From the IMG/VR virus record IMGVR_UViG_3300028584_001240: a DNA stretch of 64,000 nt; one strand, 5' to 3'. Shown piece by piece: positions 10,511-54,416 of this stretch. Within the stretch, counting starts at the first letter, position 1, and the number at the start of each line of letters is the position of its first letter. The notes beneath the pieces are model-generated. The model was not told where the DNA came from. It worked only from the letters and a program-made list of their open reading frames with translations, and did no database searches. The position numbers were made by a program, and so were the translations under genes. Source of the stretch: a virus (lineage: Duplodnaviria > Heunggongvirae > Uroviricota > Caudoviricetes).

Positions 10511-11266
10511 TTATAGTTCATTCGTTACAACTAATTCTTTAAACACGGTTTGTCTTTGATTGATGTTATAGATTAAACGTTCAAGACCAAAAGCTATTTC
10601 CAGCACAAAACATTCTCTTGGTTGATTTTTGACCATCGGTTGATAAGTAAAATCTTTTCTTAATGACACTGAACAGACTTCCATCCATTTATCATTATTG
10701 AATACTTCTATATCAATTGTTTTTAAAGAATAATCAGGCAATCTATCGGAAAGAACAATTCTGACTGGTAAAGCAACCACATCCAAGAATATTTGAGCCA
10801 AAGGTTCTATAATACTTTCTTGGTAGTTATTCTTTGTGTCTTTTGTATATAAACATTGAAATTCTTGTTGATAGAATTCTTTGTATCTGCAGTGTTTGGT
10901 TACTTGGTCCTGTTCACGTCTAAAACTCTTTGATGTCTGCCATACACACAATGGTGGCATGTAATCCTGAGATTTTAAAAGATGTTCCATATACAAATAG
11001 GAACTTGCCGTAGTTTCTGGTTTAAGCACAATAGCGTCATGATTATGTTCTTCCTGTACCCATATATCTTCATCCGTATAATTAGCATTGACTAATTCTC
11101 TCGGAATTAAGCAAGGGGCTTCTATTTGGATAAATCGCCATGATTTATTCTGAGCAAAAAGTAACTCTTGAATTTCAAATTCCATCAGTTTAACCAGATA
11201 GTCTTTCAACATCAAGTCTCGTTTGTTTAAAAAAGGTAAAGCATTAAAGTTGTAAATAAATTCCAT
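10511..11266 (-). CDS. Class II aminoacyl-tRNA synthetase catalytic core, alpha2-type GlyRS-like, lacking the anticodon-binding domain (251 aa)
   Basis: Start moved to MEFIY (AGGAG SD). LKPETT, motif 2 KSFRRE..R.KEFYQQE, LPDYS..T.DIE...W.EV.....R.DF, motif 3 VLEIAFGLERL; ORF ends shortly after motif 3; Gly leader upstream. Confidence 0.8.
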   Translation of the reverse strand: MEFIYNFNALPFLNKRDLMLKDYLVKLMEFEIQELLFAQNKSWRFIQIEAPCLIPRELVNANYTDEDIWVQEEHNHDAIVLKPETTASSYLYMEHLLKSQDYMPPLCVWQTSKSFRREQDQVTKHCRYKEFYQQEFQCLYTKDTKNNYQESIIEPLAQIFLDVVALPVRIVLSDRLPDYSLKTIDIEVFNNDKWMEVCSVSLRKDFTYQPMVKNQPRECFVLEIAFGLERLIYNINQRQTVFKELVVTNEL

Positions 11267-11303
11267 GATAGTTCTCCTAGTTAGTTTGTTAAATTTTAAG
11301 CAT

Positions 11304-11326
11304 AAAAAAACCGCCGTTAGGCGGTT
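11304..11326 (-). terminator. Attenuator terminator in the leader of the GlyRS-like gene
   Basis: AACCGCC-TAAC-GGCGGTTTTTTT between leader ORF and CDS. Confidence 0.85.
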
Positions 11327-11367
11327 CGTGTCATTGTCAAAGGACAAACAGGTATACGCCAAAACCT

Positions 11368-11418
11368 TTAAGTTTGACGGCCACCACCAACAATGTTTGA
11401 AAAATTAATATGTTTCAT
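11368..11418 (-). CDS. Gly-rich leader peptide MKHINFSNIVGGGRQT
   Basis: AAGGA SD; GGT GGT GGC run; lies between promoter and attenuator terminator. Confidence 0.85.
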   Translation of the reverse strand: MKHINFSNIVGGGRQT

Positions 11419-11445
11419 GTGTTTATCCTTTTTGAAATTACTTTA

Positions 11446-11474
11446 ACTTTAACAAAACAAAGAGATTAAGTCAA
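11446..11474 (-). promoter_or_regulatory. Promoter of the Gly leader/GlyRS-like unit
   Basis: TTGACT-N17-TAAAGT with TGn extension. Confidence 0.6.
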
Positions 11475-11595
11475 CATTTTTCTTAAATCATAAGTAAAAA
11501 AAGAGTAAAGTGATTGTAAATAAGAACAATATTGATTTACTTTCTAGAAAATAGGAATAAGATGTAAGTATTAAACAAACATCTCTGAGGCACTT

Positions 11596-12000
11596 ATGAA
11601 ATTCCTATTCGGCATCCCATTATTGTTCACACTAAGTGGATGTATTGCTGATCCTTATTATGATGATTCATACAGCTATACAGAAACAACAACAAGAACG
11701 CAGTATGTTCCATCGGGAAGTTCGATGATTTATACTGAAACAGTTGTTCGTCCACAGATTTACTATCAACCAGCACCAGTGTATGTGTATCCAAGACCCG
11801 TTTATAGACCTTACTACAACGATAGAGGGCCACATTATAGACCTCATTATAATAGACCGGGACATGATTACAGACCTAACCGTCCACATAGACCTGACTA
11901 TAACAATGGTCATGGCAGACCTGATGGACATGGACCTAGACCGGGAAATGGCAACGATCATGGTGGTCGTCCTGATAGACCGCGTGGTGGTAGAGATTAA
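11596..12000 (+). CDS. Putative lipoprotein with Pro/Tyr-rich and R/P/H/G low-complexity tail
   Basis: MKFLFGIPLLFTLSG-C lipobox; YRP and GHGxP repeats. Confidence 0.85.
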   Translation: MKFLFGIPLLFTLSGCIADPYYDDSYSYTETTTRTQYVPSGSSMIYTETVVRPQIYYQPAPVYVYPRPVYRPYYNDRGPHYRPHYNRPGHDYRPNRPHRPDYNNGHGRPDGHGPRPGNGNDHGGRPDRPRGGRD

Positions 12001-12004
12001 GATT

Positions 12005-12035
12005 AAAAAAAAGCAGCCTAAATGGTTGCTTTTTT
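12005..12035. terminator. Bidirectional intrinsic terminator
   Basis: A-run-GCAGCC-TAAAT-GGTTGC-T-run. Confidence 0.75.
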
Positions 12036-12045
12036 ATAGTTAATT

Positions 12046-12675
12046 CTATTCGCCTGTTAATTTATCCAGTGGATATAGAAAAGACGTTTTTGTAGAATTG
12101 TAATAACCTGATTGCGGGAAACTGTGTAAGATGTTTCTAACTCTGTAAAATAATTGATTACTTTTAAACAATTTAAACTTGGTTTCTTTTAATACATCTA
12201 AATTATCATAATTAGGTACAGCACATAATTTATATTCTAATGACATCAATGCATCAATACTTTCAAACATTAAATAAATCGCATCAATAACTTCTTTATT
12301 TGAAGCACTAGTTAATGCTGGTTTTGTGTCTAATTTACTTTCTAATAAATCAATAGTTGATTTAACTTCATTTTCAAATGCCGACATATCAAAAGAAAGT
12401 TCTGGATTGTTGATCTTGTGTTTATGGCAGTAATTATTAGCAAAGTCGTTTAGATTACTTGCATAGTTTTTATAAAATTTTAAAACAGTAAATTTCATAT
12501 GTCCATGCGTTTTATAAACTTTCAGTAATACATCATTAATATCTCTTATCTCGGTGCGAGATTCGCATTTGACAGATGGGAGATTAACAAAATAATCAAT
12601 TTTTTCTGCAGTTAATTTATGTAGACCATAAACGAATTGTAGATATTCTTTAATAGCTCTCTCATGATTACTCAT
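12046..12675 (-). CDS. Hypothetical protein
   Basis: 209-aa ORF, AAGGAG SD. Confidence 0.8.
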   Translation of the reverse strand: MSNHERAIKEYLQFVYGLHKLTAEKIDYFVNLPSVKCESRTEIRDINDVLLKVYKTHGHMKFTVLKFYKNYASNLNDFANNYCHKHKINNPELSFDMSAFENEVKSTIDLLESKLDTKPALTSASNKEVIDAIYLMFESIDALMSLEYKLCAVPNYDNLDVLKETKFKLFKSNQLFYRVRNILHSFPQSGYYNSTKTSFLYPLDKLTGE

Positions 12676-12765
12676 TATTTACTCCTTATTGGTTGATAAT
12701 ATATCAAAAAAATTGAAAGATGTCAAAAGAATGATACAATAATATTAAACAATAATTTAGTAGAT

Positions 12766-14070
12766 ATGATTAAAATTACAGGTGTCACGGATTTAATTAT
12801 GGGTTCATGGGATTATCACCAGACGAAAAAAGACCTGAAAGATAATAATATGGGACTTGAATTGAGTGATTCATATCTTTCTTATCATGGTGCAAAAGCA
12901 GTACTTGGAGCTGTTAGATTTACAACACTAGGTATAGCTTACGGTTATGCTCTAAATACAGGAGCCTTTAATCAATTAGACAGCATAAGTGTAGGGTTAG
13001 TGGCTGCATTTACGGCGGGTCATATAGTTAATGGAATTATTCAATATGCTCCATCCTTACTAAAAGATGAAGCACTTTCATATAAGAGATTTCAAGGTAA
13101 TATTCTAAAAGATAACGAAATTTTTAATAAGATTACCAATCAAACAGAACTATCTGTACACACTTCATATCAATTGTTTATGGTGGGTAATAAGCTGGCT
13201 ACTGGTAATCCATTCGATAAAATAGTGTTTAAAATGAAAGAACAAATATCATTATGGAAAGAGAAATGGAACAATGAACAACTTGATCAATTTAATTTTA
13301 TTTCAAAAGCTGTTTTAAAATTAATAAAGAAATCAGATAGGTTAAGTGATATCCTAACTAAATTTGTTAAAGACAGCCCATTAAAAGTCGAAACTAACAA
13401 AATAATAAAAGTTCATGGAAATATCGAATCAAAAGAAAATGAATATTTCAGATCATACATGGCTGAAAAATACCCAGAAGAACAGAAAGTGAAAAAAAGT
13501 TGTGAAGAAAGGTTAGCAGGACTAAATCAGAAGGCAATATTGTCCGCTTATGATATAATAAGACAGCAAAACGTACAATTGTTTTTTGCTAAAATCGTAA
13601 TGGACTACAATAAGGGTCATATTCATAGTGATCTTATCAAGAAATTCGCGGAACTAAATAATCAAACAAAAATACCAGAAAAAGGTAAAAACACTTATCA
13701 GGAATTTGAACCTTATGCCAATATATCAAGAATGGCAAGAAAAATGATGGATAACAAAAAATTATACCTACCTGATGTAGATGTTAAAAAAATATTAAAA
13801 GACATTAATAAAGAAATGGTCAATGATAATAAAATAAAAATATATTCATTCAATAATATTTTTTATCATACAAAGAAAAAAATAATTAACAAAGAACTTG
13901 AAAAACAAGCACTTGGAAATATACTTAAATCTGATAAAAAGGCTGTCGTCAACGAAATAGAAATTGATAACAATTCATTCAACGAGATTGTAAAAATAAC
14001 AGATAAAAAACTAAATGAAGAGAAAAAGATTGCAGAAAAAATTCAAGAAGCAAAGAAAAACAAAATATAA
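12766..14070 (+). CDS. Hypothetical protein with N-terminal hydrophobic hairpin and basic C-terminal tail
   Basis: Gly/Ala-rich hydrophobic segments at about aa 45-95; ends EAKKNKI. Confidence 0.8.
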   Translation: MIKITGVTDLIMGSWDYHQTKKDLKDNNMGLELSDSYLSYHGAKAVLGAVRFTTLGIAYGYALNTGAFNQLDSISVGLVAAFTAGHIVNGIIQYAPSLLKDEALSYKRFQGNILKDNEIFNKITNQTELSVHTSYQLFMVGNKLATGNPFDKIVFKMKEQISLWKEKWNNEQLDQFNFISKAVLKLIKKSDRLSDILTKFVKDSPLKVETNKIIKVHGNIESKENEYFRSYMAEKYPEEQKVKKSCEERLAGLNQKAILSAYDIIRQQNVQLFFAKIVMDYNKGHIHSDLIKKFAELNNQTKIPEKGKNTYQEFEPYANISRMARKMMDNKKLYLPDVDVKKILKDINKEMVNDNKIKIYSFNNIFYHTKKKIINKELEKQALGNILKSDKKAVVNEIEIDNNSFNEIVKITDKKLNEEKKIAEKIQEAKKNKI

Positions 14071-14092
14071 CTCAGCCGTAGCTGAGTTTTTT
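14069..14092 (+). terminator. Intrinsic terminator
   Basis: AACTCAGC-CGTA-GCTGAGTTTTTT. Confidence 0.8.
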
Positions 14093-15173
14093 ATAATTTC
14101 GCAATGATATTATAATTGTGTACTTGTTTGTTTTTGATATTCTTTTCAAAATAGATTTCTGGATTACTGACATATTTCTCTTCGGATGTATAATACCTTA
14201 CCGTTTTATAACCTAAACCATGCATCATATCGACTAATGAATCAATGTCTCTTATTTTACTAATCACATCGCGTTGCACTTGTGTAATAACACCTTTATC
14301 CATAAGATATTGACCAATCTTACTGTAAGTAACAAACACATTGCTTTTATCAATAAGACCCAATGAGATTTCATCATCACGACCTGTTTCAAGTTTTTTA
14401 AGATAAGCCATTGGCTGCAATAAGTTAACATTTTTATCCATAAAATGTATAAGTTCTTTCTTTAAATTGTGTGTGCTTGTTCGCATACCATCGTTATTGC
14501 TTCTTAACGTTTCAAGTAGCTCAGAAAATTCATTAGTGTACTCAGTAAAACCACATTCAACATAGTTTTCAAACTTTGTTTTTGTCTTGCTTAATGATTT
14601 CTCTATCTGATAAATATCATTCTTACTTCTCTCTATCTTTTCTTGCAAATCATATTTATTATCAATGTAGTCATCATCATCCATATCGAGATCTTCGAAT
14701 TCTGATTCAAAACGAGCCAGTTGATCATTTTCTGCATTAAGATCTTTCTCTTCCTCAATATAAGCTTCATGTAGTGTTTCCCACTCTTTAATCATTTTAT
14801 TGATATTGTTGGCTTGCCTTTCTACTTCATCAAGGTAATCAAGACTTAATCTTTCTTCAATATCTTCATAATATTCAAGTATATCTTCTCGATGACCTTC
14901 TGGAATTAAATCTTTATCCATCTCATCAAATAAGTTACTAACATCAACTGCCCACTGCTGCAATTGGGCTACACGGTCTTGTAATTCATGCAATGTTAAA
15001 TACATTTCTTCTGGATTAAATAAGATGTCTACTTCATAAACAACTGATGAACGTTCACTGTTAAAGATGAGTGCATTGATCAATGGGCATGTATTGGGTG
15101 GTTGATTAGTAATCCCTAATAACGTATCTTCTTTAATTTGACTAATGGATGATAATTCTTTTAATGATTTCAT
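14091..15173 (-). CDS. Acidic coiled-coil hypothetical protein, paralog of 15175..16242
   Basis: Shared MKSLK.L.SI.Q, QP.NTCPLI, RSNND and QPM.YLKKLETG..DEISLGL.DKS. Confidence 0.85.
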   Translation of the reverse strand: MKSLKELSSISQIKEDTLLGITNQPPNTCPLINALIFNSERSSVVYEVDILFNPEEMYLTLHELQDRVAQLQQWAVDVSNLFDEMDKDLIPEGHREDILEYYEDIEERLSLDYLDEVERQANNINKMIKEWETLHEAYIEEEKDLNAENDQLARFESEFEDLDMDDDDYIDNKYDLQEKIERSKNDIYQIEKSLSKTKTKFENYVECGFTEYTNEFSELLETLRSNNDGMRTSTHNLKKELIHFMDKNVNLLQPMAYLKKLETGRDDEISLGLIDKSNVFVTYSKIGQYLMDKGVITQVQRDVISKIRDIDSLVDMMHGLGYKTVRYYTSEEKYVSNPEIYFEKNIKNKQVHNYNIIAKL

Positions 15174-15174
15174 G

Positions 15175-16242
15175 TTAAAGTCTCGGTTTAAGTTTACTTT
15201 CAGTTATTAATTCTTGGCTAAAATTGACTTCTTTGTAGAGTTCTGGGTGTTTTATACTGATAATTGGGTCGTCATAATATCGTATTGTGGTATAACCAGA
15301 CTTCTTCAAAAAGTCTAACAAAGGTTCAACGTCATCACATCTTTTTAATAATGTCTTCGCTATATCATTTATGACATCATGCTTATTGAGGTATTCAGTT
15401 AACTTTTCAAATGTCTGGGAGTAATAAGACTTATCAACAAGTCCTAGTGATATTTCATCTGGTTTGCCTGTTTCGAGTTTTTTTAGATAATCCATTGGTT
15501 GGGTGACATTAAAATCATTGTGGGCATATTCAATAACCATATCTCTTAAATAAATAACCGTATGTCGCAATTCATCATTATTTGAGCGAATCGACTCCAT
15601 TAATTCAGTAAAGGCATTAAGTTCCTTCTCAAAAGGTTTAGAAACATCAGAATTAAAATCATCTTTTAACTCTTCAAGTTTTTCATTAATATCTTCAACT
15701 GCAGTTTTTGCTGTGGCTATTGCAGCAACAGCATCTTCATAACCTTCATCTTCTGGTTCATTATCAAAATTACTTTCTAACTGGTCATGTTCCTTTTCGG
15801 CATTATCAAGTTCTCGTTCAACACGTAAATAATAAGCATGCTTATCCTGCCAATCATAAATAAGGTCATTAATGGTTTTGACACTGCAACCCACTTCATA
15901 CATTTTATTCCATGCTATTCTGTCTGTAATATCGGTTATATAGTCATCCATATTAACGATATCATCATTATCAATAATGGATTTATCTAATATTGAATAA
16001 ACATCAACCACTTCACTGGCCCATTTTTCAAGCGTTTCAATACGTTCTGCAAGACTTTTCTCATCCAGTAACAAATGTTTTGGATCATATTCAATGTCAA
16101 GGTCATAAATAGGACTACGGCGTTGCCCTAAATAGATTAAAGGGTCTATTAAAGGGCACGTATTGTCTGGTTGTGGTGTTATCTCTAACATGTGATCAAG
16201 TCTAACTTGACGTATGGATGGAAGATCCTTTAAAGACTTCAT
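15175..16242 (-). CDS. Acidic coiled-coil hypothetical protein, paralog of 14091..15173
   Basis: Same shared motifs; ends SKLKPRL. Confidence 0.85.
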   Translation of the reverse strand: MKSLKDLPSIRQVRLDHMLEITPQPDNTCPLIDPLIYLGQRRSPIYDLDIEYDPKHLLLDEKSLAERIETLEKWASEVVDVYSILDKSIIDNDDIVNMDDYITDITDRIAWNKMYEVGCSVKTINDLIYDWQDKHAYYLRVERELDNAEKEHDQLESNFDNEPEDEGYEDAVAAIATAKTAVEDINEKLEELKDDFNSDVSKPFEKELNAFTELMESIRSNNDELRHTVIYLRDMVIEYAHNDFNVTQPMDYLKKLETGKPDEISLGLVDKSYYSQTFEKLTEYLNKHDVINDIAKTLLKRCDDVEPLLDFLKKSGYTTIRYYDDPIISIKHPELYKEVNFSQELITESKLKPRL

Positions 16243-16299
16243 GTTTTTGCCTACTGTTTTTTACATTATAGCATAAGTGCTATAATTATTCAAAAAACA

Positions 16300-16659
16300 T
16301 CAATCAAACAATTTTTCTATGACTTTAACCATACGCTTTGCTTCTTTTCTCGCTTTAACCAACTTTTTTCGCCAAGCTGCTTGTTCTTTTCGGGTTCTTT
16401 TTTGGAAGGATAATTCTGAAAAGCTACGAATGGGAATATTATTTTCATCAACAATCTCACCAATTATCCAGTCAAAGAGATAACCTTCTTTAATATTTTG
16501 ATGGTCGGAAACATCAAAAACAGAAAAATTAAATTCCCCTATTTCTTCGTCAGACTTTGGATTAGTCACATCATATAAAATGGCAAAAAAAGTCTTTTTT
16601 TCAATGTCTACTGAATCAATATAACCTTCAAATTCTTGTAATATTTGTTTATGCTCCAT
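16300..16659 (-). CDS. Hypothetical protein
   Basis: 119 aa, AGGAG SD, basic C-terminal helix. Confidence 0.8.
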   Translation of the reverse strand: MEHKQILQEFEGYIDSVDIEKKTFFAILYDVTNPKSDEEIGEFNFSVFDVSDHQNIKEGYLFDWIIGEIVDENNIPIRSFSELSFQKRTRKEQAAWRKKLVKARKEAKRMVKVIEKLFD

Positions 16660-16693
16660 CTCTATTCTCCTGTTGATAACTACAATAACACAA

Positions 16694-18570: not shown

Positions 18571-18620
18571 GTTAAAACTCCATTAAAAATTTGTTTTATT
18601 ATAGCATAAATTGAGAATTG

Positions 18621-20236: not shown

Positions 20237-20291
20237 AGTTAACCTCGCAAAAGATGAAAGATTATAGCATACAACTACTTAATTATCAACA

Positions 20292-20994: not shown

Positions 20995-21039
20995 ATGTTT
21001 TTCAAATACGAATTAAAGGTGATCGAAGACAAATATTAA
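20995..21039 (+). CDS. Upstream peptide MFFKYELKVIEDKY
   Basis: AGAGGA SD; lies between the promoter and 21061..21672. Confidence 0.55.
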   Translation: MFFKYELKVIEDKY

Positions 21040-21060: not shown

Positions 21061-21672
21061 ATGAAAACAGAAGTTATTTACCTTATCAACAAGGAAGGTA
21101 TCGTTAATACCTACCAAAATAAGGCAGAAGCATTTAACAAGTTGGGATACAACTTCATTGTCTACTCGTTAGCCGTTGAACTTGCATCTCCTGATCGTGA
21201 CAAAATTTGGGATGGTTACGCTAACCGTCGCTTTGCCAAAAAGAAACACGAAGGGTTGGGACAAACTTACGGCGAGCTTTACAAAAAGCTTAACCGTTAT
21301 GACGAAATGAAAGTATACGGTGATTTCATTCTCAAAAATGAATACAACGAACATCTTACTGTTCTTGACTTTGCTGAGTTTGTTTTCAAAGAAAAGAAAG
21401 AAAAAACTTACATCGGTTACGGGAAAAAGTTTTGGAATGGTGAAGGTGCTGTTCCTTACACTGGGAAACGTGGACGTTATTGCTATCGTAGAAAGCCAAA
21501 AACGCTTTTCTTGCTTAAAGATGCTGCCAGCGAAGTTGATGAAGATGAAATTGAATTCAACGTCAAAAATCGCAGACCAAAAGGTGCTATCACTACGGCA
21601 TGGGATGATAAAGGAAGAAATGACTGGCGTAACAGAAACTGGAAAAGACACCGTAACACACAATACAAATAA
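21061..21672 (+). CDS. Basic hypothetical protein with C-terminal RNWK..R..QY motif; distant relative of 4398..4982
   Basis: AGGAG SD; VPYTGKR..YRRKPKT and WDD...RNWKRHRNTQYK. Confidence 0.85.
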   Translation: MKTEVIYLINKEGIVNTYQNKAEAFNKLGYNFIVYSLAVELASPDRDKIWDGYANRRFAKKKHEGLGQTYGELYKKLNRYDEMKVYGDFILKNEYNEHLTVLDFAEFVFKEKKEKTYIGYGKKFWNGEGAVPYTGKRGRYCYRRKPKTLFLLKDAASEVDEDEIEFNVKNRRPKGAITTAWDDKGRNDWRNRNWKRHRNTQYK

Positions 21673-30512: not shown

Positions 30513-30541
30513 AAATAAAGACCATCTCATGATGGTTTTTT
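30513..30541 (+). repeat. Terminator, direct-repeat copy 1 flanking the argS cassette
   Basis: AAATAAAGACCATCTCATGATGGTTTTTT; 27/29 identical to 32378..32406. Confidence 0.8.
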
Positions 30542-30543
30542 TA

Positions 30544-30573
30544 TTGACATCAAAAGGTTATTTATGTTAATAT
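30544..30573 (+). promoter_or_regulatory. Promoter of the Arg leader/argS unit
   Basis: TTGACA-N18-TAATAT with TGn extension; 30540..30573 is 29/34 identical to the AlaRS promoter. Confidence 0.7.
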
Positions 30574-30597
30574 AGTCAACTAATCGGAGAAAAAATA

Positions 30598-30627
30598 ATG
30601 AACACTAAACTATTGAGACGACTTTAA
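30598..30627 (+). CDS. Arg leader peptide MNTKLLRRL
   Basis: GGAG SD; tandem AGA CGA codons; lies between promoter and argS. Confidence 0.7.
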   Translation: MNTKLLRRL

Positions 30628-30681
30628 TTAAATCAAAAATTACCCATTACTATTTTTTATATAATTAAAAGGAGATTCAAT

Positions 30682-32349
30682 ATGTACAAGTCCATTATTA
30701 AATCGGATATCCAAAATTATCTGACATCAAAAAGCATCACGTTAACGGTTGATGTATCGTATTCAAGTTTTGAAAATTTTCATTATCAAACATCTATCCT
30801 TTTTCAATTAAATAAAAAAGGCGACTTTGACACGGCCAGCTTGATTGATTATTTATTGAAAACCACTCATTACGAAAACATTGAAATAACAGGGAAAGCT
30901 TTTTTGTCTTTCAAAATGAATTTAATGAATACACAAACAGTGCAAACAAAACTAAAAGAAACAGTGGTAGTCGATTACTGTGGTGTTAACGTTGCAAAAA
31001 AAATGCACATCGGACATATACGGTCTATGTTTATTGGCGACTTTGTTGTTCGGAGCCATCAGAATATGGGTGATGAAGTTATTTCATATAATCATATTGG
31101 TGATTGGGGAAATCAATTTGGTTTCCTACTCAATTACATTATGAAGAATGATTTAGCAAAGAACTTAGACAATCAAAAGCTCACTGAGTATTATAAGCTC
31201 GCTTATAGTGCCTATAACCTATCCAAAGAAAGTGATGATAATTCATTTGCACTTGAATCGGATAATGTTGCGTATAATCTTCAAAATAAACTTGATGATA
31301 AATTGCTAGCTTTATGGCAAAAATGTGTCGATATTAGTTTGATTGATCTAGAAGATACAATTAAAGAATTTAAGCTCAAATTGAACATTGCTGATACCAA
31401 GGGTGAAAGCTTCTTTGCTCAGTTCTGTCATGAAATCGTTGAAGACTTAATCAAAAAACAAATTGCCAGTGTTGATGATAATGGGTCGGTGTATGTTCAA
31501 CTTGAAAATAACAAGCTGGTCATCAAAAAAACGAATGGCACCTTTTTGTATGCTCTTTATGATTTAGCCGCTATAAAATGGCGGGTAGAACAACATAACC
31601 CAGATAAAATAGTGTATGTGGTTGATAAACGGCAGTCACTGCATTTTGAAACAATCTTCATGATTGCTAAAAAAGCAGGTTATGCAACCGATAAAAATAA
31701 GCTTGTCCATTTGGGTTTTGGTACCATCTTAGGTGAAGATAATAAGCCTATCAAAACAAAAACAGGAAAATCATTGTATTTGGATGATCTGTTAATGGAA
31801 GGTAAAAATGAATTATTAAAATCTACACACTTTACAAAGCTCTCAGGTGAGATACAAACTGAGTTGTTGAATAAAACGATTGTTGGTGGTCTTAAATTTC
31901 ATGATTTAAAATTAAGCAAGCATCAAGATTATGTGTTTGACTGGAAACATGTTTTAAACTTCTCTGGTGGTTCAGCTCCTTATCTTCAAAATGCTTCTGT
32001 TCGGATTGATTCAATTTTGTTTAAGAAATACAATATGAATGAACCTAAATTAATCATTGCTGATGATATGATTTTAAACACTCAGGAAAATTGTTTATTC
32101 TTTAATGTTTTAAAAACTCAAGAGATTATCAATGAAATGAGTGCTGATTATCAAAGTCATTATTTAACCACTCAACTGGTAAGCTTGTGTACTTTGTTCC
32201 ACAAGTATTACGAAAGTGAAAAAATATTAGGACATGAAGAAGAGTATAAGAAATTATGCTTGATCGCTGCAGTGAAAGATGTCATTGAGAAAGGCTGCAA
32301 TATCTTAGGTATTGAAACCTATCCATGTTTATCAAAAATGACTACTTAA
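30682..32349 (+). CDS. argS: Arginyl-tRNA synthetase
   Basis: VDYCGVNVAKKMHIGHIRS (HIGH), NHIGDWGNQFG, GESFF, DLAAI, YVVDKRQ.LHF, IKTKTG (KMSK-like), SAPYLQNA..RI.SI, C-terminal DALR-type region. Confidence 0.96.
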   Translation: MYKSIIKSDIQNYLTSKSITLTVDVSYSSFENFHYQTSILFQLNKKGDFDTASLIDYLLKTTHYENIEITGKAFLSFKMNLMNTQTVQTKLKETVVVDYCGVNVAKKMHIGHIRSMFIGDFVVRSHQNMGDEVISYNHIGDWGNQFGFLLNYIMKNDLAKNLDNQKLTEYYKLAYSAYNLSKESDDNSFALESDNVAYNLQNKLDDKLLALWQKCVDISLIDLEDTIKEFKLKLNIADTKGESFFAQFCHEIVEDLIKKQIASVDDNGSVYVQLENNKLVIKKTNGTFLYALYDLAAIKWRVEQHNPDKIVYVVDKRQSLHFETIFMIAKKAGYATDKNKLVHLGFGTILGEDNKPIKTKTGKSLYLDDLLMEGKNELLKSTHFTKLSGEIQTELLNKTIVGGLKFHDLKLSKHQDYVFDWKHVLNFSGGSAPYLQNASVRIDSILFKKYNMNEPKLIIADDMILNTQENCLFFNVLKTQEIINEMSADYQSHYLTTQLVSLCTLFHKYYESEKILGHEEEYKKLCLIAAVKDVIEKGCNILGIETYPCLSKMTT

Positions 32350-39574: not shown

Positions 39575-39575
39575 T

Positions 39576-44245: not shown

Positions 44246-44304
44246 GATGTTTCTCCTTTTGGTTAAGACCCGGCTATAATAACAAAAACACAACAAAAAA
44301 TCAA

Positions 44305-45120: not shown

Positions 45121-45132
45121 TATTAACTCCAC

Positions 45133-45936: not shown

Positions 45937-45950
45937 TGTATAACTCCCAT

Positions 45951-46739: not shown

Positions 46740-46746
46740 ACAACTC

Positions 46747-47592: not shown

Positions 47593-47694
47593 GTGACATC
47601 TCCTAAAATTTGAACAATTATAACACAACACCTTAAAACTGTAAACAAAAAAGCCACAACAAACGTTATGGCTTCATTTTACTAGACAAAACAA

Positions 47695-48345
47695 TTAAGC
47701 TACCGTATCAGCAACCACAATACCATGATCAACCATTTCTTTGATAGCATTATACAAGGTTTCATCAGCAATATGACGACACGCTGATAAGTTAACCACC
47801 ACATCAAAACCGGCGAGTTTTAACTGGATTGCGGTGTTCTTAACACAATAGTCTGTTGCAAGACCACCAACCAGAACAAGTTCAATGCCATTTGCACGAA
47901 GAACTTCAATCACACCCGTAGTTTTTTTGTTGCCGAGGTCATGGTAGCAAGCACCATATGGGTGCATATGTCGTTCAATACCTTTATAGACCATAAAATC
48001 ATATTTATCGGCCTTTGGAAGTTCATCCAAGAACTCTACCCCTTCGGTACCAAGAATACAGTGAGCTTTCCAGTGAATATCCATATCACGAAACTGTGGA
48101 GCAACTGGACTGAATTGTGGATTCTTTTCATCCGCTACCCAATAAGCATTGGTAGCATGAATATCTTTTGAACCTACACGAAACCCAGCCAGCTCAGCTT
48201 GTGCGTTTAGTGCAGCAGCAATCAAATGACCACCCGCTACGGGCAATTCCTCTGGAAAGAGTGGTGTGAAGCTTTTTTGAGGGTCAACATCAAACGAAGC
48301 AATCTTAGATTTTTCTTTATTCACAACATATTGAGTAGTATTCAT
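47695..48345 (-). CDS. pncA: Nicotinamidase (isochorismatase superfamily)
   Basis: DVDPQKSF..LPVAGG, SKDIH, HWKAHC..GT.G, VYKG, GGLATDYCVKNTA; start MNTTQ (AAGGAG SD). Confidence 0.9.
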   Translation of the reverse strand: MNTTQYVVNKEKSKIASFDVDPQKSFTPLFPEELPVAGGHLIAAALNAQAELAGFRVGSKDIHATNAYWVADEKNPQFSPVAPQFRDMDIHWKAHCILGTEGVEFLDELPKADKYDFMVYKGIERHMHPYGACYHDLGNKKTTGVIEVLRANGIELVLVGGLATDYCVKNTAIQLKLAGFDVVVNLSACRHIADETLYNAIKEMVDHGIVVADTVA

Positions 48346-48403
48346 GGTGTAACTCCTTTTTTTCATTTGACCTATTATACCACATTATAATACTAAAATT
48401 CAA

Positions 48404-49192
48404 CTAAATTTGATCCATTTCTAAAACTAAAAGGGCTTTGTTTAAATCAAGTAAAATTTCGTTTATGGATTGATAGGTGTTATTAATAAAATCGGTAAGA
48501 CTGGGTTTAAGAAAATGTGACGAAAACAAATATTTCCAGTAATCTTGAACATCAAGGTTCTTTACATTAATCATAGTAAAGTTTTGAGAATTAAATGAAA
48601 ATGAATCGCCATCGTAATAAAAACTCATATTAGCATGAAATATTGTAGAAGTGCTTTGATAATGATTAATGAAATAACACATATTATTTCGCGTCAAATC
48701 AATTACGATCTTTAAAGATTTTCCATTTTTATTATCTATATGTGGATAGAAATAAAGAGATTCCAATACACCAGATAAATCAACAGAATGCTTAGTGGGT
48801 AATGTTGCAATCAATTTTTGAGTGTAATCATCTACCTGCGTTCTCAATACATTCTTCACTGGACTGTTAATGTGATGATAATCGTCATCATTAAATTTTT
48901 CGTCACGAGAATACACGACTGTATAATAAAGTGAGATATCCATCGAGTATCCTTTACTTGTTTTTGAGTCTTGAATATACCTAAATGGGATACGGAGTTC
49001 ATCAATATGAATGAAACCTTTACACTCAAAATTATTGTCTAAACAGGTAATACTGAAGACATTTATTTCAACAGACCGACCAAAATATTCATCCGCAATA
49101 GTTTTCATTAATGTATCGTGATGTGGAATGAACGAAAGTTCTCCAAAATGGGTATCGACCACTTTATGTTCTGTCAATTTTTTTTCATTCAT
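48404..49192 (-). CDS. Hypothetical protein; C-terminal-motif family
   Basis: GAGG SD; ends VLEMDQI. Confidence 0.8.
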   Translation of the reverse strand: MNEKKLTEHKVVDTHFGELSFIPHHDTLMKTIADEYFGRSVEINVFSITCLDNNFECKGFIHIDELRIPFRYIQDSKTSKGYSMDISLYYTVVYSRDEKFNDDDYHHINSPVKNVLRTQVDDYTQKLIATLPTKHSVDLSGVLESLYFYPHIDNKNGKSLKIVIDLTRNNMCYFINHYQSTSTIFHANMSFYYDGDSFSFNSQNFTMINVKNLDVQDYWKYLFSSHFLKPSLTDFINNTYQSINEILLDLNKALLVLEMDQI

Positions 49193-49244
49193 TTTGATTG
49201 CCTCACTTTCATATATTATAGCATATTTAACCTATTTATACAAT

Positions 49245-49269
49245 AAAAAAAGACCTGTTCGGTCTTTTT
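49245..49269. terminator. Intrinsic terminator
   Basis: AAAAAAAGACC-TGTTC-GGTCTTTTT. Confidence 0.75.
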
Positions 49270-49284
49270 CAATACATCAATAAA

Positions 49285-50850
49285 TTATACAGTCATACGG
49301 CTTTTAACACGATCTTGCTTATTAGCCACAAGATTTTCTGGTTTAGTATTATTCATAGCTTTTTGTTTAAGAATTTGATCTTTGAAGAATTGTTTAATAT
49401 TATCACCTTCTTTAACTTTAAATCCATGATCTTCAATTTGAAGAATAGGTAAAATATCATCAGCTTTACTTGCCTTTAATCCTTCAAGTTCTTTTGGTAT
49501 AGTGATATTAAGTTCAGTAGTTGAAGCTTGTTTAGCACTAATACCTGATACTGGCATGTCTATCAACTCAGGCTCTTCAAAGATAAATACTTCTTTGGGT
49601 ATTTTTTTGGTCTTTGACTCTGGCAAGGGTTGATATGTTTCTTTAATTTTTTTAACAAATTTAAGTAAGTCACTCGTAGTTAAATTGTCATTTTGTACGG
49701 CGGCAACATTAACAGGTTTGTCATCTTTTTCTGGTTTCACAAAAGCGTCAATAAATAATGGCTTCTTCAAGTTATCTTTAACATAAGGAACCTCTAGAAT
49801 TTTAGCAGTTGGCGTATTAACATTAATGGTTGAGTTCTCAATAGCAATATTGATTTCATTTTCAATTTGAGCTTCAACAAAATAATTATCATCATGTAAG
49901 CTAACAAGTTTATTCGTAGGAGCTGGAAGTAAAGCAGCATAAGACTTTCTCACATCACTCACTAAATTTAAGTAATCAGACTTATCCATTAATCCATCTT
50001 GGTTCATCGGAACTTCTGGTTTTTTAGCAGGTAATTGATAATCTATTGTCGGCATATTTGCTACATTGATATCTAACTTCTTAGCTTCCATAATAGGTGC
50101 AGCAAAAACAACATTCGTTAAACCATTATCAATTTCATTAGCCAATGCGGCATTTGTCTTTAATGATGAAGTAATTTTACTGTAATTCTCTTTACACTTA
50201 TCAACAAGCGTTAACAAAGGAGAAATCGCATACAAAGGCAATGAATACAAACCAGCAGTCATAATGGTTTCAACAGAACTAACTGGAAGAACATTGGTCA
50301 TACCATTAGTTAATCCGGCTGCAAGCATAGTGCCTACAACACCCGTAGCGAATGAATTGTAAAGATATTCTCTGCCTTCAAGTTTAACGTCTTCTGCAGT
50401 AATGTATCTATTTTCTTGAATGATAGGTGTTTCGAGCTTTCCAGCAATACGTTCTTTAAAAATAGATAATTTTTGATAGTCGTATTCATAATCGTTGACA
50501 GATTTTAATTTCTCACCTGATATTTTACATAAACCATCTTTCATTTTGTCATAAAGATTCATTAAAGGCGTTGCAGCAAAAGCTCCTGCGGAAGTAACGA
50601 TAGCCATTTGAGCCATTGATTTAGCCACATCAAGTGGTATCGTATTGGTGACATGAGCGAGAAGGCTACCTACGACTAAAATAGTAGAGACACCTGTGGC
50701 AAGTCCCACAACCATCAAACTCTTTTGATCTTTTTCAACATCTTTTCTTAGATATAAGGTTTTCTTTGCAAGATTTTCTTTCTCTTTATCTGCAAAATTT
50801 ATCAAATCGAGATTCAACTTCTCAGAAATGGATTTTTTAAATAATGGCAT
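49285..50850 (-). CDS. Membrane protein with duplicated hydrophobic hairpin and basic tail
   Basis: ATGV...TN..P......PL..L.DK.K....KI repeated twice; ends DRVKSRMTV. Confidence 0.8.
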   Translation of the reverse strand: MPLFKKSISEKLNLDLINFADKEKENLAKKTLYLRKDVEKDQKSLMVVGLATGVSTILVVGSLLAHVTNTIPLDVAKSMAQMAIVTSAGAFAATPLMNLYDKMKDGLCKISGEKLKSVNDYEYDYQKLSIFKERIAGKLETPIIQENRYITAEDVKLEGREYLYNSFATGVVGTMLAAGLTNGMTNVLPVSSVETIMTAGLYSLPLYAISPLLTLVDKCKENYSKITSSLKTNAALANEIDNGLTNVVFAAPIMEAKKLDINVANMPTIDYQLPAKKPEVPMNQDGLMDKSDYLNLVSDVRKSYAALLPAPTNKLVSLHDDNYFVEAQIENEINIAIENSTINVNTPTAKILEVPYVKDNLKKPLFIDAFVKPEKDDKPVNVAAVQNDNLTTSDLLKFVKKIKETYQPLPESKTKKIPKEVFIFEEPELIDMPVSGISAKQASTTELNITIPKELEGLKASKADDILPILQIEDHGFKVKEGDNIKQFFKDQILKQKAMNNTKPENLVANKQDRVKSRMTV

Positions 50851-50911
50851 TAATTGACCAGTAGTTGTTAATTATAACTACATTATACAACATAACCAAA
50901 AAAAGTAAATT

Positions 50912-51619
50912 TTAAAAATCAACAATTTCACTTAAACGAAACAACTCATTAAGATCACTATCGAAATCAATACTTGCATCTTCCAAGCAAGAAAATATAT
51001 CAGACTCTTTAAAAATATGCTTGCAGACCGTATCAAAATCACCACTGTATATTTTCACTTTATTTTTTGTTTTCTTACTATCACTGTATTTGCAACGCAA
51101 GACTATTGTTGAATCAAGAAAATGAAACTCCATATTTAAATTAAATTCACCTTTAATATCATAGATGACAACATGATCGCCACCATGAACTTCATTTTCT
51201 ACATTTTCAGCTACTAAATTATAGCTGTAATTGAAGGTAGCATTTTTTTGATGTGTAAAGTGTTCATAAGCGTCAAGAAAAAACTGTTCTGCATGGCAAC
51301 TATTAAGTGTGTTCAACTTCTTAAATACTTTGAAAACGTCTTCAAAACTAGAATAATGTTCGTTAGCAATAAAACCAATTGAACTATAAGCAGTAGCTGA
51401 AAAAGAAAAACTACCGTCTTGTTCTAATGTGTAAAAATAAGGAAACCCTTCATCAATAACACAATGGCGAATACCATTAGAATAATGAACAAGAATATTT
51501 TGAGCAGCCGGACTAAATACAGCATGCATACCATCAGTCTTAGGTGTCTCAAAAGTGTTTTCAAGTTCGGAACCATTTTTAAAACTTCTAAGAATCTTGT
51601 GATTTTTTCTTCTGTCCAT
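50912..51619 (-). CDS. Hypothetical protein; C-terminal-motif family (variant)
   Basis: GAGGA SD; ends LSEIVDF. Confidence 0.8.
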   Translation of the reverse strand: MDRRKNHKILRSFKNGSELENTFETPKTDGMHAVFSPAAQNILVHYSNGIRHCVIDEGFPYFYTLEQDGSFSFSATAYSSIGFIANEHYSSFEDVFKVFKKLNTLNSCHAEQFFLDAYEHFTHQKNATFNYSYNLVAENVENEVHGGDHVVIYDIKGEFNLNMEFHFLDSTIVLRCKYSDSKKTKNKVKIYSGDFDTVCKHIFKESDIFSCLEDASIDFDSDLNELFRLSEIVDF

Positions 51620-51772
51620 TAGTCATCCTCAATAATGTAGCGACAATCATACATTTTTTATCACAAAAAGTCAATAAATAAGGCTAAACAAACAAAGAAA
51701 AAGACTTGATCTAATGGGTTATTTTGTGCTATCATTAAATTATTAAAGATATTCAATTAAAGGTATTGAACA

Positions 51773-52900
51773 ATGGGAAAGCAAAATAAAAAGAAAATTG
51801 AAGAGTTTGAATCGAGCGAAATGCGATTCAAGCAATCTATTGCCAATCATTCAAACAAAGTAAAATTTGAAAACTCAACCAAACAAGAAGTGCCAGCCAT
51901 TAATGAAATTGAAACTGAGTTGCTTGCTTTCGCTGTTAATGATCCTGATGCTTTCAAATACACCCTGAAATCAAGCAATCGTGACAAAAAAGTCAAACTT
52001 TTGGCAAAATTTCTTTTTTCAAAATACAAAACCCCAAAAATTCTTGAACAAGTATGGGATGGCCCAGCCATTCCAGATCGTGCCCACACCAAAAAGAAAT
52101 CATCAGCAATTCGTTATCGTAAATGGTTCGTGTGTGCCGCCACAGGTGGCTCTCTTTACAAGGAACATTTGAAACCATTCTTGACAAAAAAAGAAGGGGC
52201 TAATTTTGTTAGTTGTCCATTTGATTTGACCATCGATCAAGCCATTGTTTACTCTATTGCATTGGCAGAAAGTGATCGTGCCGGTGCTGCATTGCGTATC
52301 GCTAAATCAAAATTAAATGAAAAAAACTATGAAACTGAGTTCTGGAAGAATGTTATCAAGTTCTTTGCCCAAGAGGGTAAAACACCAGAAACCGTAGAAC
52401 AAATTAACGACTTGGTTGACTTTATCAATGCTCAAAAGCTTGAAAATAACAACTTTAATATTTTTGGTAATGGTTGGACACTTGCCTCGCTTATCAAAAG
52501 AACACATGATTGGCACTATGAACTTCGTCGTGCTAAAAAAATGGGTACCTTTACTTGGGATGGTCATGATTTCAAAAATTTCAGCTTTACTAAGCGTAAA
52601 GATGAATACAATGCTGAGGAATGGACACTGACTCAAATTAAATCATCCAAAGAATTGCTGGAGGAAGGTAAGCAACAACACCATTGTGTATTTGGTTACA
52701 AAAACTCTTGCATTGATGGCTCAACATCCATTTGGTCTTTGAAAATGAACGGAAAACGAAAAGTGACCATTGAAGTGCGTTCTAACTATAACATTGTACA
52801 AGCTCGTGGTTTTGCCAACAGAAAAACAACAGGTGAAGAAGACAACTTTATTAGACTTTGGGCTAATGAAAACAATCTTAGCCTCAACTATCGTTATTAA
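51773..52900 (+). CDS. PcfJ domain-containing protein
   Basis: RTHDWH, ELLEEGKQQHHCVFGY...C..G..SIWSL, TIEV, IVQARGFANR. Confidence 0.85.
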   Translation: MGKQNKKKIEEFESSEMRFKQSIANHSNKVKFENSTKQEVPAINEIETELLAFAVNDPDAFKYTLKSSNRDKKVKLLAKFLFSKYKTPKILEQVWDGPAIPDRAHTKKKSSAIRYRKWFVCAATGGSLYKEHLKPFLTKKEGANFVSCPFDLTIDQAIVYSIALAESDRAGAALRIAKSKLNEKNYETEFWKNVIKFFAQEGKTPETVEQINDLVDFINAQKLENNNFNIFGNGWTLASLIKRTHDWHYELRRAKKMGTFTWDGHDFKNFSFTKRKDEYNAEEWTLTQIKSSKELLEEGKQQHHCVFGYKNSCIDGSTSIWSLKMNGKRKVTIEVRSNYNIVQARGFANRKTTGEEDNFIRLWANENNLSLNYRY

Positions 52901-52909
52901 GGAGATGTT

Positions 52910-53083
52910 ATGAATAAAATGATGAACAAATTTTTACAACCGAAAGTCAGATTTAGAAACATCAAACTCTGGGAGAATTTGTATGGTGATGATTCACATC
53001 CACCATGTGTAGGGAATCACTTTGTTCCTGAAAAGTATTCAAGGTTTCATCTAAACCACGGAAAGTGGCGAAAATTTTATTAA
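52910..53083 (+). CDS. Small hypothetical protein (57 aa), not in the ORF track
   Basis: AAGGAG SD; MNKMMNKFLQPKVRFRNIKLW...HGKWRKFY*. Confidence 0.65.
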   Translation: MNKMMNKFLQPKVRFRNIKLWENLYGDDSHPPCVGNHFVPEKYSRFHLNHGKWRKFY

Positions 53084-53172
53084 AAAATCTTTAAAATAAT
53101 TGTATTTTCCTTTTGTTCCTTATTGATATTGTTAAAAAACATGCTATTAATAAGAAAAAAGGAGACTATATT

Positions 53173-53364
53173 ATGCCTACAGTTCATAGAGTTCATTATT
53201 TTGAAAGCGAAAGAGGTTGGGGTTCAGATCAATGGCAGACTGATTACACAACAGAAGAAGAAGCCCAAAAAATGGTTAAAGAAACAAATGAAAAATTCTG
53301 TTCGAGTGTAATTACACCTGATTACTATATCAAAGCTGAATATCTCGGGCCAATCAATCTTTAA
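53173..53364 (+). CDS. Small phage-type hypothetical protein (ESERGWG motif)
   Basis: AAGGAG SD before MPTVH; ESERGWG...TPDYY.KA. Confidence 0.75.
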   Translation: MPTVHRVHYFESERGWGSDQWQTDYTTEEEAQKMVKETNEKFCSSVITPDYYIKAEYLGPINL

Positions 53365-53382
53365 ATCAATTAGAAATAGAAA

Positions 53383-53400
53383 AAGACTCCTAGGAGTCTT
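53383..53400. terminator. Perfect 18-bp palindrome, probable bidirectional terminator overlapping the AlaRS stop
   Basis: AAGACTCCTAGGAGTCTT flanked by A- and T-rich tracts. Confidence 0.7.
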
Positions 53401-54265
53401 CTTTTTTTCCAAACACAATAACATATTCATCCATTCGGCCCACATTAAAGCCATAGGTATCCATCCAAAATATATTATCTTTATCTTTAAAGCGTTTATG
53501 GTTTCTTTTCCTCATATAAGTAGAATAAGCTTTTTCTTGATTGAAACGAATTCGATCAAAAAATTCATTGCTTATTTGACTACCATGAAAAATAGATTCA
53601 GTGATTAGTTTCTTCAAAATGTATTCTTTCTTATTGTGACCAAGTAATACACCATCGTCTATCAATAATAAAGCAGTTTCTTCAAGGATTTGAAGCTTAC
53701 TTTTCGATGTTAAGCTTCCAGTCACTTCAAGCAGTCTTTCAAGTCCAAAACCCACATCTATGCAAGTATCCATTGTATTAACAATATTCCCTATCTCAAC
53801 ATAGTTCTTGTAAAACTCTGTGCAATATCCACCAATACTACCATCTGACCAGACACATTCAGGATCTAAACGTATTTCAACGCCATATTCAGAATAAAGG
53901 TCTTTCCAGTCTTCATATTTATCAGGGTGAATAGTTACATAGTCTGGAATAATACCCAGCTTATTAACAAAGGAATACATGAAATCAATAGCTTTTTTAA
54001 GTGTCCATTGTCTAAATGAAAATAAACCTATCATTTCAAATTTTAAAAAGTGTGTGCCATCACCTATTTCGTCTAGGTCATTAATTCTTAGGCATTGCTG
54101 GATGTTAGTAAATGTGTTGGTGTATTCTAGGTTAGAATATAAGGGTTTAAATTGTTGCATACCAGATGTGGTAAACAGAGTTGTATCGTCAGGACTTTTG
54201 ACAGATGAATTTATATGAAAGTCCAATTCATATAATCTGGAATGGTCTTTGTATGTTTCGATAAT
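53390..54265 (-). CDS. Alanyl-tRNA synthetase N-terminal catalytic core (no editing or C-Ala domains); start uncertain, may need a -1 frameshift or ATT reinitiation from the leader
   Basis: DDTTLFTTSGMQQFK, QQCLR.NDLDEIGD.TH...FEMIG.FSF, W.DG..GGYCTE, VEIGNIV, IDVGFGLERL. The frame stays open and AlaRS-like upstream of the TTG at 54226, which has no SD. Confidence 0.85.
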   Translation of the reverse strand: MIETYKDHSRLYELDFHINSSVKSPDDTTLFTTSGMQQFKPLYSNLEYTNTFTNIQQCLRINDLDEIGDGTHFLKFEMIGLFSFRQWTLKKAIDFMYSFVNKLGIIPDYVTIHPDKYEDWKDLYSEYGVEIRLDPECVWSDGSIGGYCTEFYKNYVEIGNIVNTMDTCIDVGFGLERLLEVTGSLTSKSKLQILEETALLLIDDGVLLGHNKKEYILKKLITESIFHGSQISNEFFDRIRFNQEKAYSTYMRKRNHKRFKDKDNIFWMDTYGFNVGRMDEYVIVFGKKEDS

Positions 54266-54288
54266 TAGATTGCGTTTAGCTGTGACAT
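54265..54288 (-). CDS. Ala-containing leader MSQLNAI overlapping the AlaRS frame
   Basis: AGGAGG-N5-ATG TCA CAG CTA AAC GCA ATC TAA. Confidence 0.7.
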   Translation of the reverse strand: MSQLNAI

Positions 54289-54321
54289 AGCTTCCTCCTA
54301 TTTATAAAAGTTGTCTATAAC

Positions 54322-54351
54322 ATAATAACATTAAAAACCTTATTATGTCAA
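54322..54351 (-). promoter_or_regulatory. Promoter of the Ala leader/AlaRS unit
   Basis: TTGACA-N18-TATTAT with TGn extension; near-copy of the argS promoter. Confidence 0.7.
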
Positions 54352-54416
54352 TAAACAAAACAAAATTGAAGAAAAAATAAAGACTCTAGTTAAATAGAGT
54401 CATCATCACAATTAAA

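Follow-up and report, generated by a model that had tools for sequence, protein, structure and literature searches.

Each of the three aminoacyl-tRNA synthetase-type genes in a 64,000-nucleotide stretch of Caudoviricetes DNA (IMG/VR record IMGVR_UViG_3300028584_001240; the whole stretch analysed is called the window below) stands behind a promoter and a short open reading frame (ORF) that is led by a Shine-Dalgarno sequence (SD) and contains the amino acid matching the enzyme. The genes encode a glycyl-tRNA synthetase (GlyRS)-like core, a full-length arginyl-tRNA synthetase (ArgRS) and a catalytic-core fragment of alanyl-tRNA synthetase (AlaRS). We think it probable that the short ORFs belong to three independent cis-acting sensors, each tying the production of one synthetase to scarcity of the charged tRNA that it makes. 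A sequence-only reading of the same DNA had proposed one logic, in which cognate codons gauge the supply of charged tRNA, served by three different downstream mechanisms, and the comparative evidence given here upholds that proposal. Its charged-tRNA-sensing core is supported by the conservation of the cognate codons, the four-segment attenuator geometry of the glycine module and the scarcity, in each enzyme, of the amino acid that it handles.

Cognate codons upstream and enzyme composition

We scanned the intergenic DNA up to 200 nt upstream of each of the 70 genes in the window and found six SD-led ATG upstream ORFs (uORFs) of 4-35 codons, which precede five genes. Such a uORF stands before 3/3 synthetase genes and before 2/67 others (hypergeometric probability about 2e-4). 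The three mini-ORFs lie at the coordinates and on the strands claimed for them in the sequence-only reading, and the architecture described there, a promoter followed by an SD-led short ORF and then the coding sequence, is found at all three genes. Each mini-ORF has an SD and a sigma-70-type promoter bearing a TG extension, and all three are kept in relatives. Loss of the cognate codons from homologous leaders had been named beforehand as the refuting observation; the codons are conserved. The other two SD-led uORFs are MIFLFAKFYGGNFRCFN (window 5000-5050, minus strand), before the gene at 4398..4982, and MFFKYELKVIEDKY (20995-21039, plus strand), before the gene at 21061..21672; both begin MF or MI-F, and the downstream genes are without known function.

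The enzymes themselves are directly seen to be poor in the amino acid that their leaders carry. Compared with the window's 70 proteins, the GlyRS-like protein (251 aa) has 1 Gly where 9.9 are expected, the lowest content of all; the ArgRS (555 aa) has 5 Arg where 17 are expected, and the AlaRS-like protein (291 aa) has 3 Ala where 12.3 are expected, each the second lowest. The other two of Gly, Arg and Ala are at normal levels in each of the three enzymes. The pattern extends to relatives: every leader-bearing GlyRS-like relative has exactly 1 Gly, and the ArgRS clade retains just 5 invariant Arg. AlaRS-like genes that carry the alanine cassette described below have a mean Ala content of 0.5%, compared with 2.0% in cassette-free genes (Mann-Whitney p = 6e-8, not corrected for relatedness), and 7/16 of the cassette genes encode no Ala at all, even at 59% GC in a phage. 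This is how enzymes should look that are made when their own charged tRNA is scarce.

The glycine and arginine leaders

The GlyRS-like gene (10511..11266, minus strand) encodes a stand-alone class II catalytic core. We place its start at ATG 11266, behind its own SD (AGGAG, 11278..11274), instead of at the listed TTG 11362, from which the frame would cross a terminator. A PDB profile search gave its best match to GlyRS (2e-12), and the top 12 Foldseek matches to the predicted model (pLDDT 91) are all GlyRS; by profile and predicted fold, the protein is closest to the catalytic domain of alpha2-type GlyRS. It falls below all curated full-length cutoffs (NCBIfam 47 bits vs 312) and is without the C-terminal anticodon-binding domain. 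Given the length of 251 aa and the sub-cutoff score, we call it GlyRS-like and not a canonical GlyRS.

The leader of this gene, on the same strand, starts from a promoter TTGACT-17-TAAAGT with a TG extension (11446..11474), the position of which is kept in the related loci L154 and L306. The leader ORF, MKHINFSNIVGGGRQT followed by a stop codon (11418..11368), has the SD AAGGA at 11430..11426 and contains the regulatory Gly codons GGT GGT GGC (11388..11380). Segment 1 of the attenuator (GCCGUCAAACU, 11381..11371) can form a hairpin with segment 2 (GGUUUUGGCG, 11366..11357) across the leader stop codon, and the alternative partner of segment 2 is the 5' arm of an intrinsic terminator. The latter comprises segments 3:4, GAACCGCC-UAAC-GGCGGUUU with a U-run (11301..11327), and lies between leader and gene; its hairpin (11327..11308) is followed by a T-run, and there is no minus-strand gene upstream for it to serve.

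Relatives of the GlyRS-like protein at 96, 86, 78, 76, 72, 68 and 65% identity all have an SD-led leader ORF with a Gly run. Five of these seven leaders end at a stop codon directly after IVGGGRQT, IIGGGSQT, VMQGGCPQT, KGFGGCSLIE or MIRGRG, and two read on from VIGGGRQL and VVGGGRPK. Among relatives the Gly codons swap synonymously (GGT GGT GGC, GGC GGC GGT, GGA GGG GGT, GGT GGA GGT and others), and the remaining leader has diverged. An intrinsic terminator precedes the gene in L154, L306, L155, L307, L308 and L309, and not in L074. The last of these loci (L074:1494-5760, on an 87-kb viral contig) holds the 68% relative amid an array of 15 tRNA genes, with the leader MNTILMIRGRG.

The terminator 5' arm finds its best partner 13-24 nt past the Gly run in each of six independent leaders (6/6), with the leader stop codon anywhere from +9 to +36, and this antiterminator partner co-varies with the terminator (GGCGG for CCGCC, GUAGCC for GGCUAC, GGUGG for CCACC). 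The pairing of segments 2 and 3 is strong in L306, L307, L308 and L309 and beats shuffles in four leaders (z -2.1 to -4.8). In truncated, co-transcriptional folds with a ribosome footprint on the last Gly codon, it forms in L306, L307 and L308. By analogy, the geometry is that of a trp/pheST-type attenuator, and the module is very probably a ribosome-mediated transcription attenuator. Under Gly shortage, a ribosome stalled at GGU-GGU-GGC would mask segment 1, so that the freed segment 2 would pair with the terminator 5' arm and RNA polymerase would read through into the GlyRS-like gene. With ample Gly-tRNA, the ribosome would proceed to the leader stop, the terminator would form and transcription would end.

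Several observations weigh against this reading. The window's own pairing of segments 2 and 3 amounts to 4 bp (z = -0.6), and neither the window nor L155 clearly beats shuffles. Equilibrium folds of full Gly leaders retain the terminator in every masked state; the argument therefore rests on kinetics, and we used truncated folds and duplex energies. Furthermore, a 12-bp helix around the leader ORF and its SD is not explained by a simple four-segment model. This helix (AAGGAUAAACA/UGUUUGUCCUU, window 11340-11432, minus strand) encloses the whole leader ORF including the SD; a similar pairing seems possible in L306, and the helix might restrict leader translation to one round. A promoter-like site (TTAACA-16-TATCAT, 10/12 matches; window 11265-11292, minus strand) is also seen between the attenuator terminator and the start of the GlyRS-like gene, overlapping SD and ATG. 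This match has probably arisen by chance; a true promoter here would allow a basal level of expression not subject to attenuation.

Leaders are also found before more distant homologs of the GlyRS-like gene. Paraburkholderia homologs have the leader NQRGFGGT, closed by a stop codon, and a terminator. Those in Rhizobium, Phenylobacterium, Devosia, Caulobacter and related genera follow a leader ORF of 28-33 codons with a variable N-terminal part and an invariant (G)GRG(L/M)(R/G)V end (loci L003-L068, for example L041:3822-3912, L003:3805-3907 and L033:3826-3916; end block CGAGGTCT.CGCGTC). The last codons of these alphaproteobacterial leaders can pair with a co-varying downstream segment (CGUCUUCGG/CCGGAGACG against CGUCCAG/CUGGACG, then GUAAAGCC). 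The leader has no Rfam match and looks like an undescribed cis-regulator. Since leaders precede both the Paraburkholderia and the alphaproteobacterial homologs, leader control of the GlyRS-like family would be old and widespread. A double-glycine bacteriocin precursor was considered for the Gly leader and rejected, as only 3-12 residues follow the GG.

The arginine module lies on the plus strand. Its argS gene (30682..32349) encodes a full-length ArgRS of 555 aa with 5 Arg, which scores above the curated cutoff (TIGR00456, 297.8 bits vs 261.65) and matches Pfam tRNA-synt_1d and DALR_1. A promoter TTGACA-18-TAATAT with TG (30544..30573) follows directly after the terminator of the upstream gene (30521..30543) and serves both leader and argS. 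The leader ORF MNTKLLRRL plus stop (30598..30627; SD GGAG, 30586..30589) contains the Arg codons AGA CGA at 30616..30621. In relatives of 87, 75 and 66% identity the distance from uORF to argS is constant and the leaders read MNTTLLRRL, MKNTCLRRR and MNLLRRR, each ending there at a stop codon; AGA-CGA is invariant and the flanks have diverged. The ending LRR(L/R) before the stop is kept in L233, L234, L235 and L238, a 40% relative has the uORF MMLKLRRID followed by a stop codon, and two 53% relatives (L237 and L303) have longer RRR leaders followed by intrinsic terminators. A metagenome scan with the ArgRS alignment returned mostly distant argS genes and four useful loci.

From these comparisons we regard it as quite likely that the Arg leader senses Arg-tRNA; our confidence in its exact mechanism is lower. 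In the window, a predicted long-range helix (30610..30684) joins the leader codons and stop region (CUAUUGAGAC...CUUUAAUUAAAU) to the argS ribosome-binding site (AUAUAAUUAAAAGGAGAUUCAAUAUG), and in 4/4 close relatives the argS SD and AUG region is paired, in the minimum-energy fold, with the Leu-Leu-Arg codons and the stop. Accessibility of the argS ribosome-binding site is 0.20-0.33 and is computed to rise to 0.49-0.58 with a ribosome placed on the last Arg codon; in 4/4 close relatives the site is less open than in controls with shuffled leaders, the fractions of controls at or below the observed value being 0.20, 0.05, 0.01 and 0.11. The leader thus probably acts, as modelled, by unmasking the argS ribosome-binding site, that is, by translational attenuation. 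Its Leu-Leu-Arg-Arg codons and stop region would pair with the argS SD and AUG region, and a ribosome held at AGA-CGA would keep that helix open, so that argS would be translated. Against this stand an AU-rich and weak helix (consensus -0.6 kcal/mol from four related sequences, with only two compensatory pairs), the lack of a terminator in the window's Arg leader and the ArgRS relatives L236, L239, L277 and L314, which have no leader.

The alanine cassette and rival explanations

The AlaRS-like gene lies on the minus strand (53390..54277) and encodes the N-terminal catalytic part only: PF01411 is matched at positions 23-180 of 552, TIGR00344 scores 72 bits vs 457, and the tRNA-recognition, editing and C-Ala domains are unmatched. 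Upstream are a promoter TTGACA-18-TATTAT with TG (54322..54351) and the mini-ORF MSQLNAI with its stop codon (54288..54265). The SD of this mini-ORF (AGGAGG, 54299..54294) leads the sole SD-led start available to the gene. The gene's reading frame extends upstream without a stop as far as 54301, overlapping the mini-ORF in the -1 frame. The sequence-only reading had described a leader peptide; its cognate Ala codon and out-of-frame overlap are borne out, and the whole is better described as a -1 recoding cassette. We lean towards a -1 frameshift at a hungry Ala codon, with the proposed shift site A-AAC-GCA at 54271..54277 (Asn as the P-site and Ala as the A-site codon).

Ribosomes would start at the only SD-led AUG and read MSQLN. 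With Ala-tRNA plentiful, GCA would be decoded and the stop reached two codons later. With the A site empty, the peptidyl-tRNA(Asn) would slip from AAC to AAA (in loci with G-GAC, tRNA(Asp) to GGA), and translation would continue in the -1 frame through the AlaRS-like body with its 3 Ala codons, giving a predicted trans-frame product MSQLN-RNLIIETYK... of about 299 aa with 3 Ala. The sensor codon would be the only Ala codon met before the enzyme body, and the shift would bypass it. Hungry-codon frameshifting, including leftward shifts, is an established phenomenon (PMC5009743).

About 30 nt of the cassette are conserved among relatives with 42-72% protein identity. In an alignment of AlaRS-like homologs at only 53-72% identity, the string GGSYVTAKRN is invariant; since it is the SD and mini-ORF read in the frame of the gene, the conservation is at the nucleotide level. 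We compared the starts of 75 related loci on viral contigs, of which 18, including the window type, have the cassette and 57 are cassette-free. Most cassette-free loci start at an ordinary ATG located 2-3 codons ahead of the aligned N-terminus; an SD can be recognised in roughly half of these. In the cassette loci the only SD-led start opens a mini-ORF of the form M(x0-4)[N/D]A(x0-7)stop, which is in frame +1 with respect to that of the gene. Twelve of the 18 have no ATG, GTG or TTG in the main frame near the start, and among the other six only L192 has an SD-bearing candidate (TTG at -84). The shift motif is A-AAC-GCN or G-GAC-GCN in 18/18 cassette loci; AGAC and GAAC do not occur. Each Asn or Asp codon is hence preceded by a base identical to its own first base, which is what a peptidyl-tRNA needs to re-pair one base back. 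The preceding codon varies (CUA, CUG, CGG, GUG) yet retains its last base. In the 16 loci measured, the SD precedes the shift site by 9-19 nt, and by 11-17 nt where the SD is strong; a conserved structure downstream of the shift site was looked for and none was found.

An exact search for the cassette returned four copies before AlaRS-like genes and one before an unrelated ORF. The latter, on a GC-rich phage contig (L320:2365-2752, the same as L325:1490-1913), consists of an SD and ATG-ACA-CCG-CTA-AAC-GCA-AT before an ORF of 112-136 codons in the -1 frame that has no Pfam family; the cassette may be portable, or else this instance is a remnant. Sequencing error or a pseudogene was rejected as the origin of the frame break, which recurs in many independent assemblies with intact frames of 275-290 codons, and transcriptional slippage was rejected as there is no long homopolymer. 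Another candidate for the shift, in which tRNA-Ser decodes GCA as a doublet, was also considered and set aside; it is indistinguishable here from P-site slippage. A tRNA-Ser has been found to cause non-cognate shifts (PMC5009743).

Other points count against the frameshift. The slipped tRNA re-pairs at 2/3 positions only, and the site is not a canonical X-XXY-YYZ heptamer. The cassette has a single Ala codon, its roughly 30 conserved nt exceed what a slip site alone needs, and the AA/GG co-variation at the shift site may reflect few independent events. In the phage with the L320/L325 copy, the unrelated ORF behind the cassette is not Ala-free. A reading that dispenses with the frameshift has the AlaRS-like gene expressed by reinitiation after the mini-ORF, or by direct initiation at a non-canonical main-frame codon (ATT 54265, overlapping the stop as UAAUU), with the mini-ORF a mere coupling device. 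Stop and in-frame ATT do overlap as TAATT in the window, L156 and L313, and cassette-free homologs start within 2-3 codons of the ATT position. However, the mini-ORF stop ranges in position from -2 to +19 nt with respect to the aligned start, a spread that speaks against reinitiation, and in L199 and L200 no AUG, GUG, UUG, CUG or AUH occurs for 13 codons past that stop. Initiation without a frameshift would also leave the invariant X-XAC-GCN motif and the near-absence of Ala in cassette genes unexplained, and we regard this reading as unlikely.

Two further alternatives concern all three modules, and we consider each improbable. If the short ORFs were functional micropeptides or enzyme substrates (double-glycine-type or RiPP-like), or the leaders were protein- or tRNA-binding RNAs (T-box-like, riboswitch or operator) and not translated sensors, conservation beyond the cognate codons would make sense, and there is some: IV-GGG-RQ, L-RR and, in alphaproteobacteria, GRGLRV in the peptides, about 30 nt in the Ala cassette and an 11-nt string, AGGTTTTGGCG, common to the window and Paraburkholderia but lying in different frames in the two. 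Against these readings, the Gly codons change synonymously, and the spacing between Gly run and segment 2 is constant in leaders whose tails are 3-12 residues long. A peptide product also does not predict that three unrelated genes have their own cognate codon upstream and encode enzymes that avoid that amino acid. For the RNA variants, a search of the three leaders against Rfam gave sub-threshold noise only, with none up to E 10 for T-box or glycine riboswitch (best, Trp_leader at 21.7 bits vs a threshold of 41), and in 14 related loci Rfam gave tRNAs only; the T-box and riboswitch readings were dropped for want of a covariance-model match (Stem I with specifier, T-box sequence, glycine aptamer). 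As for generic devices that couple translation or transcription, such as reinitiation enhancers or Rho shields, the uORFs would then show no amino-acid-specific response and their cognate codons would be a coincidence. Leader genes that merely boost downstream translation have been proposed (PMC4833913), two further window genes have SD-led uORFs, and there are only 2 cognate codons in the Arg leader and 1 in the Ala leader. Nevertheless, in each leader no feature is better conserved among relatives than the cognate codons, RR or GGG would arise by chance in a 9-16-codon ORF at 31% GC in about 2% of cases or less (an estimate from base composition), and each enzyme is specifically depleted in the amino acid that its leader carries.

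Known systems and the carrier element

Leader-peptide attenuation of synthetase genes is known for pheST and has been predicted for Streptomyces trpS and leuS and for hisS paralogs of bacilli (PMC1262725, PMC2965389), so leader-peptide control of synthetase genes as such is not new. With Escherichia coli pheM-pheST, the Gly module and the L237 and L303 Arg modules share a promoter-proximal SD-led leader, tandem cognate codons, predicted alternative hairpins and an intrinsic terminator, and they would be further members of the pheST-type attenuators. Unlike pheM-pheST, they would sense Gly and Arg, they have no similarity to Rfam leaders, they occur on a giant ORFan-rich element and on huge-phage relatives, and the Gly enzyme is a 251-aa protein without an anticodon-binding domain. 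The window's Arg module resembles the translational attenuation of ermC and cat in that a paused leader ribosome would melt a helix hiding the downstream ribosome-binding site. It differs from them in that the pause would come from lacking Arg-tRNA at AGA-CGA and not from an antibiotic and an arrest peptide, and in that the helix is weak, AU-rich and predicted. With the T-box of Firmicute glyQS and other genes, the modules would share induction of a synthetase when its tRNA is uncharged and a choice between terminator and antiterminator; here a tRNA-binding Stem I, a specifier loop and a T-box sequence are all absent, and a translating ribosome would be the sensor.

The Ala cassette is the novel part. 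Its closest parallels are the +1 frameshift of prfB (release factor 2) and hungry-codon shifting (PMC5009743): translation of a short zero-frame ORF would terminate early if no shift took place at a slow A-site codon, an SD lies upstream, and, as in prfB, slowness at the codon (here Ala) would report the supply of the gene's own product. In contrast to prfB, the shift would be -1 and not +1, charged tRNA and not release factor would be sensed, and hardly any of the sensed amino acid is present in the enzyme body; the shift site also lies 4-5 codons from the start, so that the initiation SD may double as stimulator. Our literature search found no paper on a synthetase controlled by a hungry-codon frameshift. 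The Ala cassette would thus add a -1, charged-tRNA-sensing counterpart to the RF2 frameshift switch and, if the reading is true, would be the first natural synthetase autoregulated by recoding, apparently portable and able to drive other genes (L325). It would also offer a compact and directly testable means of studying hungry-codon frameshifting, for a long time treated chiefly as an error.

A broader statement, to which we give equal weight for and against, would be that giant AT-rich elements and huge phages carry a modular, ribosome-based charged-tRNA sensor kit, including a -1 shift at a single hungry Ala codon that switches on an Ala-free minimal AlaRS. In that case very large phage-like elements would not just carry translation parts but make them on demand, with a separate sensor for each amino acid. 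From the regulatory logic, which is indirect evidence, we infer that both reduced enzymes, a GlyRS core lacking the anticodon-binding domain and an AlaRS core lacking the editing domains, raise charged tRNA. The near-total removal of the cognate amino acid is a genomic signature that could be used to find more such systems.

The sequence-only reading had spoken of a mobile starvation-sensing system that responds to starvation or host defence. The sensing core is supported; mobility and a role in host defence are conjectural, the window being syntenic with a 1.86-Mb contig. The synteny covers 20 kb of this 1,859,102-bp metagenome contig (L313:1-20837, JGI 3300031134), with an M3 peptidase, a PcfJ-like protein and the AlaRS-like gene (93%). 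ArgRS and GlyRS-like relatives are located on contigs of 1.7-2.3 Mb, and other relatives on records classed as huge phages, one of them of 437 kb and 98% complete by CheckV. Each of the three synthetases has relatives on 1.5-2.3-Mb contigs and also on viral records of 180-560 kb. The replicon may be a giant extrachromosomal element, may belong to a huge phage lineage or may come from an unusual cell. The related viral loci came from searches with alignments, which were required to find them; single-protein searches yielded none.

The window has a GC content of 31%; no tRNA gene was found in it, and no Rfam family matched at the gathering threshold. Megablast gave no DNA-level match to plasmid or phage records, and at the protein level the only matches to plasmids and phages were distant argS genes. 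Most of the large ORFs have no Pfam or PHROG family, with no PHROGs match for 10 of them. Two more synthetase genes, gltX and cysS, are reported next to the window on its upstream side. A 542-aa protein (window 6097-7725, minus strand), which has no phage-family match, combines an iron-containing redox (Haem_oxygenas_2) domain with a DUF3419 segment. The L313 copy of the syntenic region has an additional IS605 OrfB/TnpB-type gene, and a Thg1-family gene lies about 8 kb from its AlaRS-like gene.

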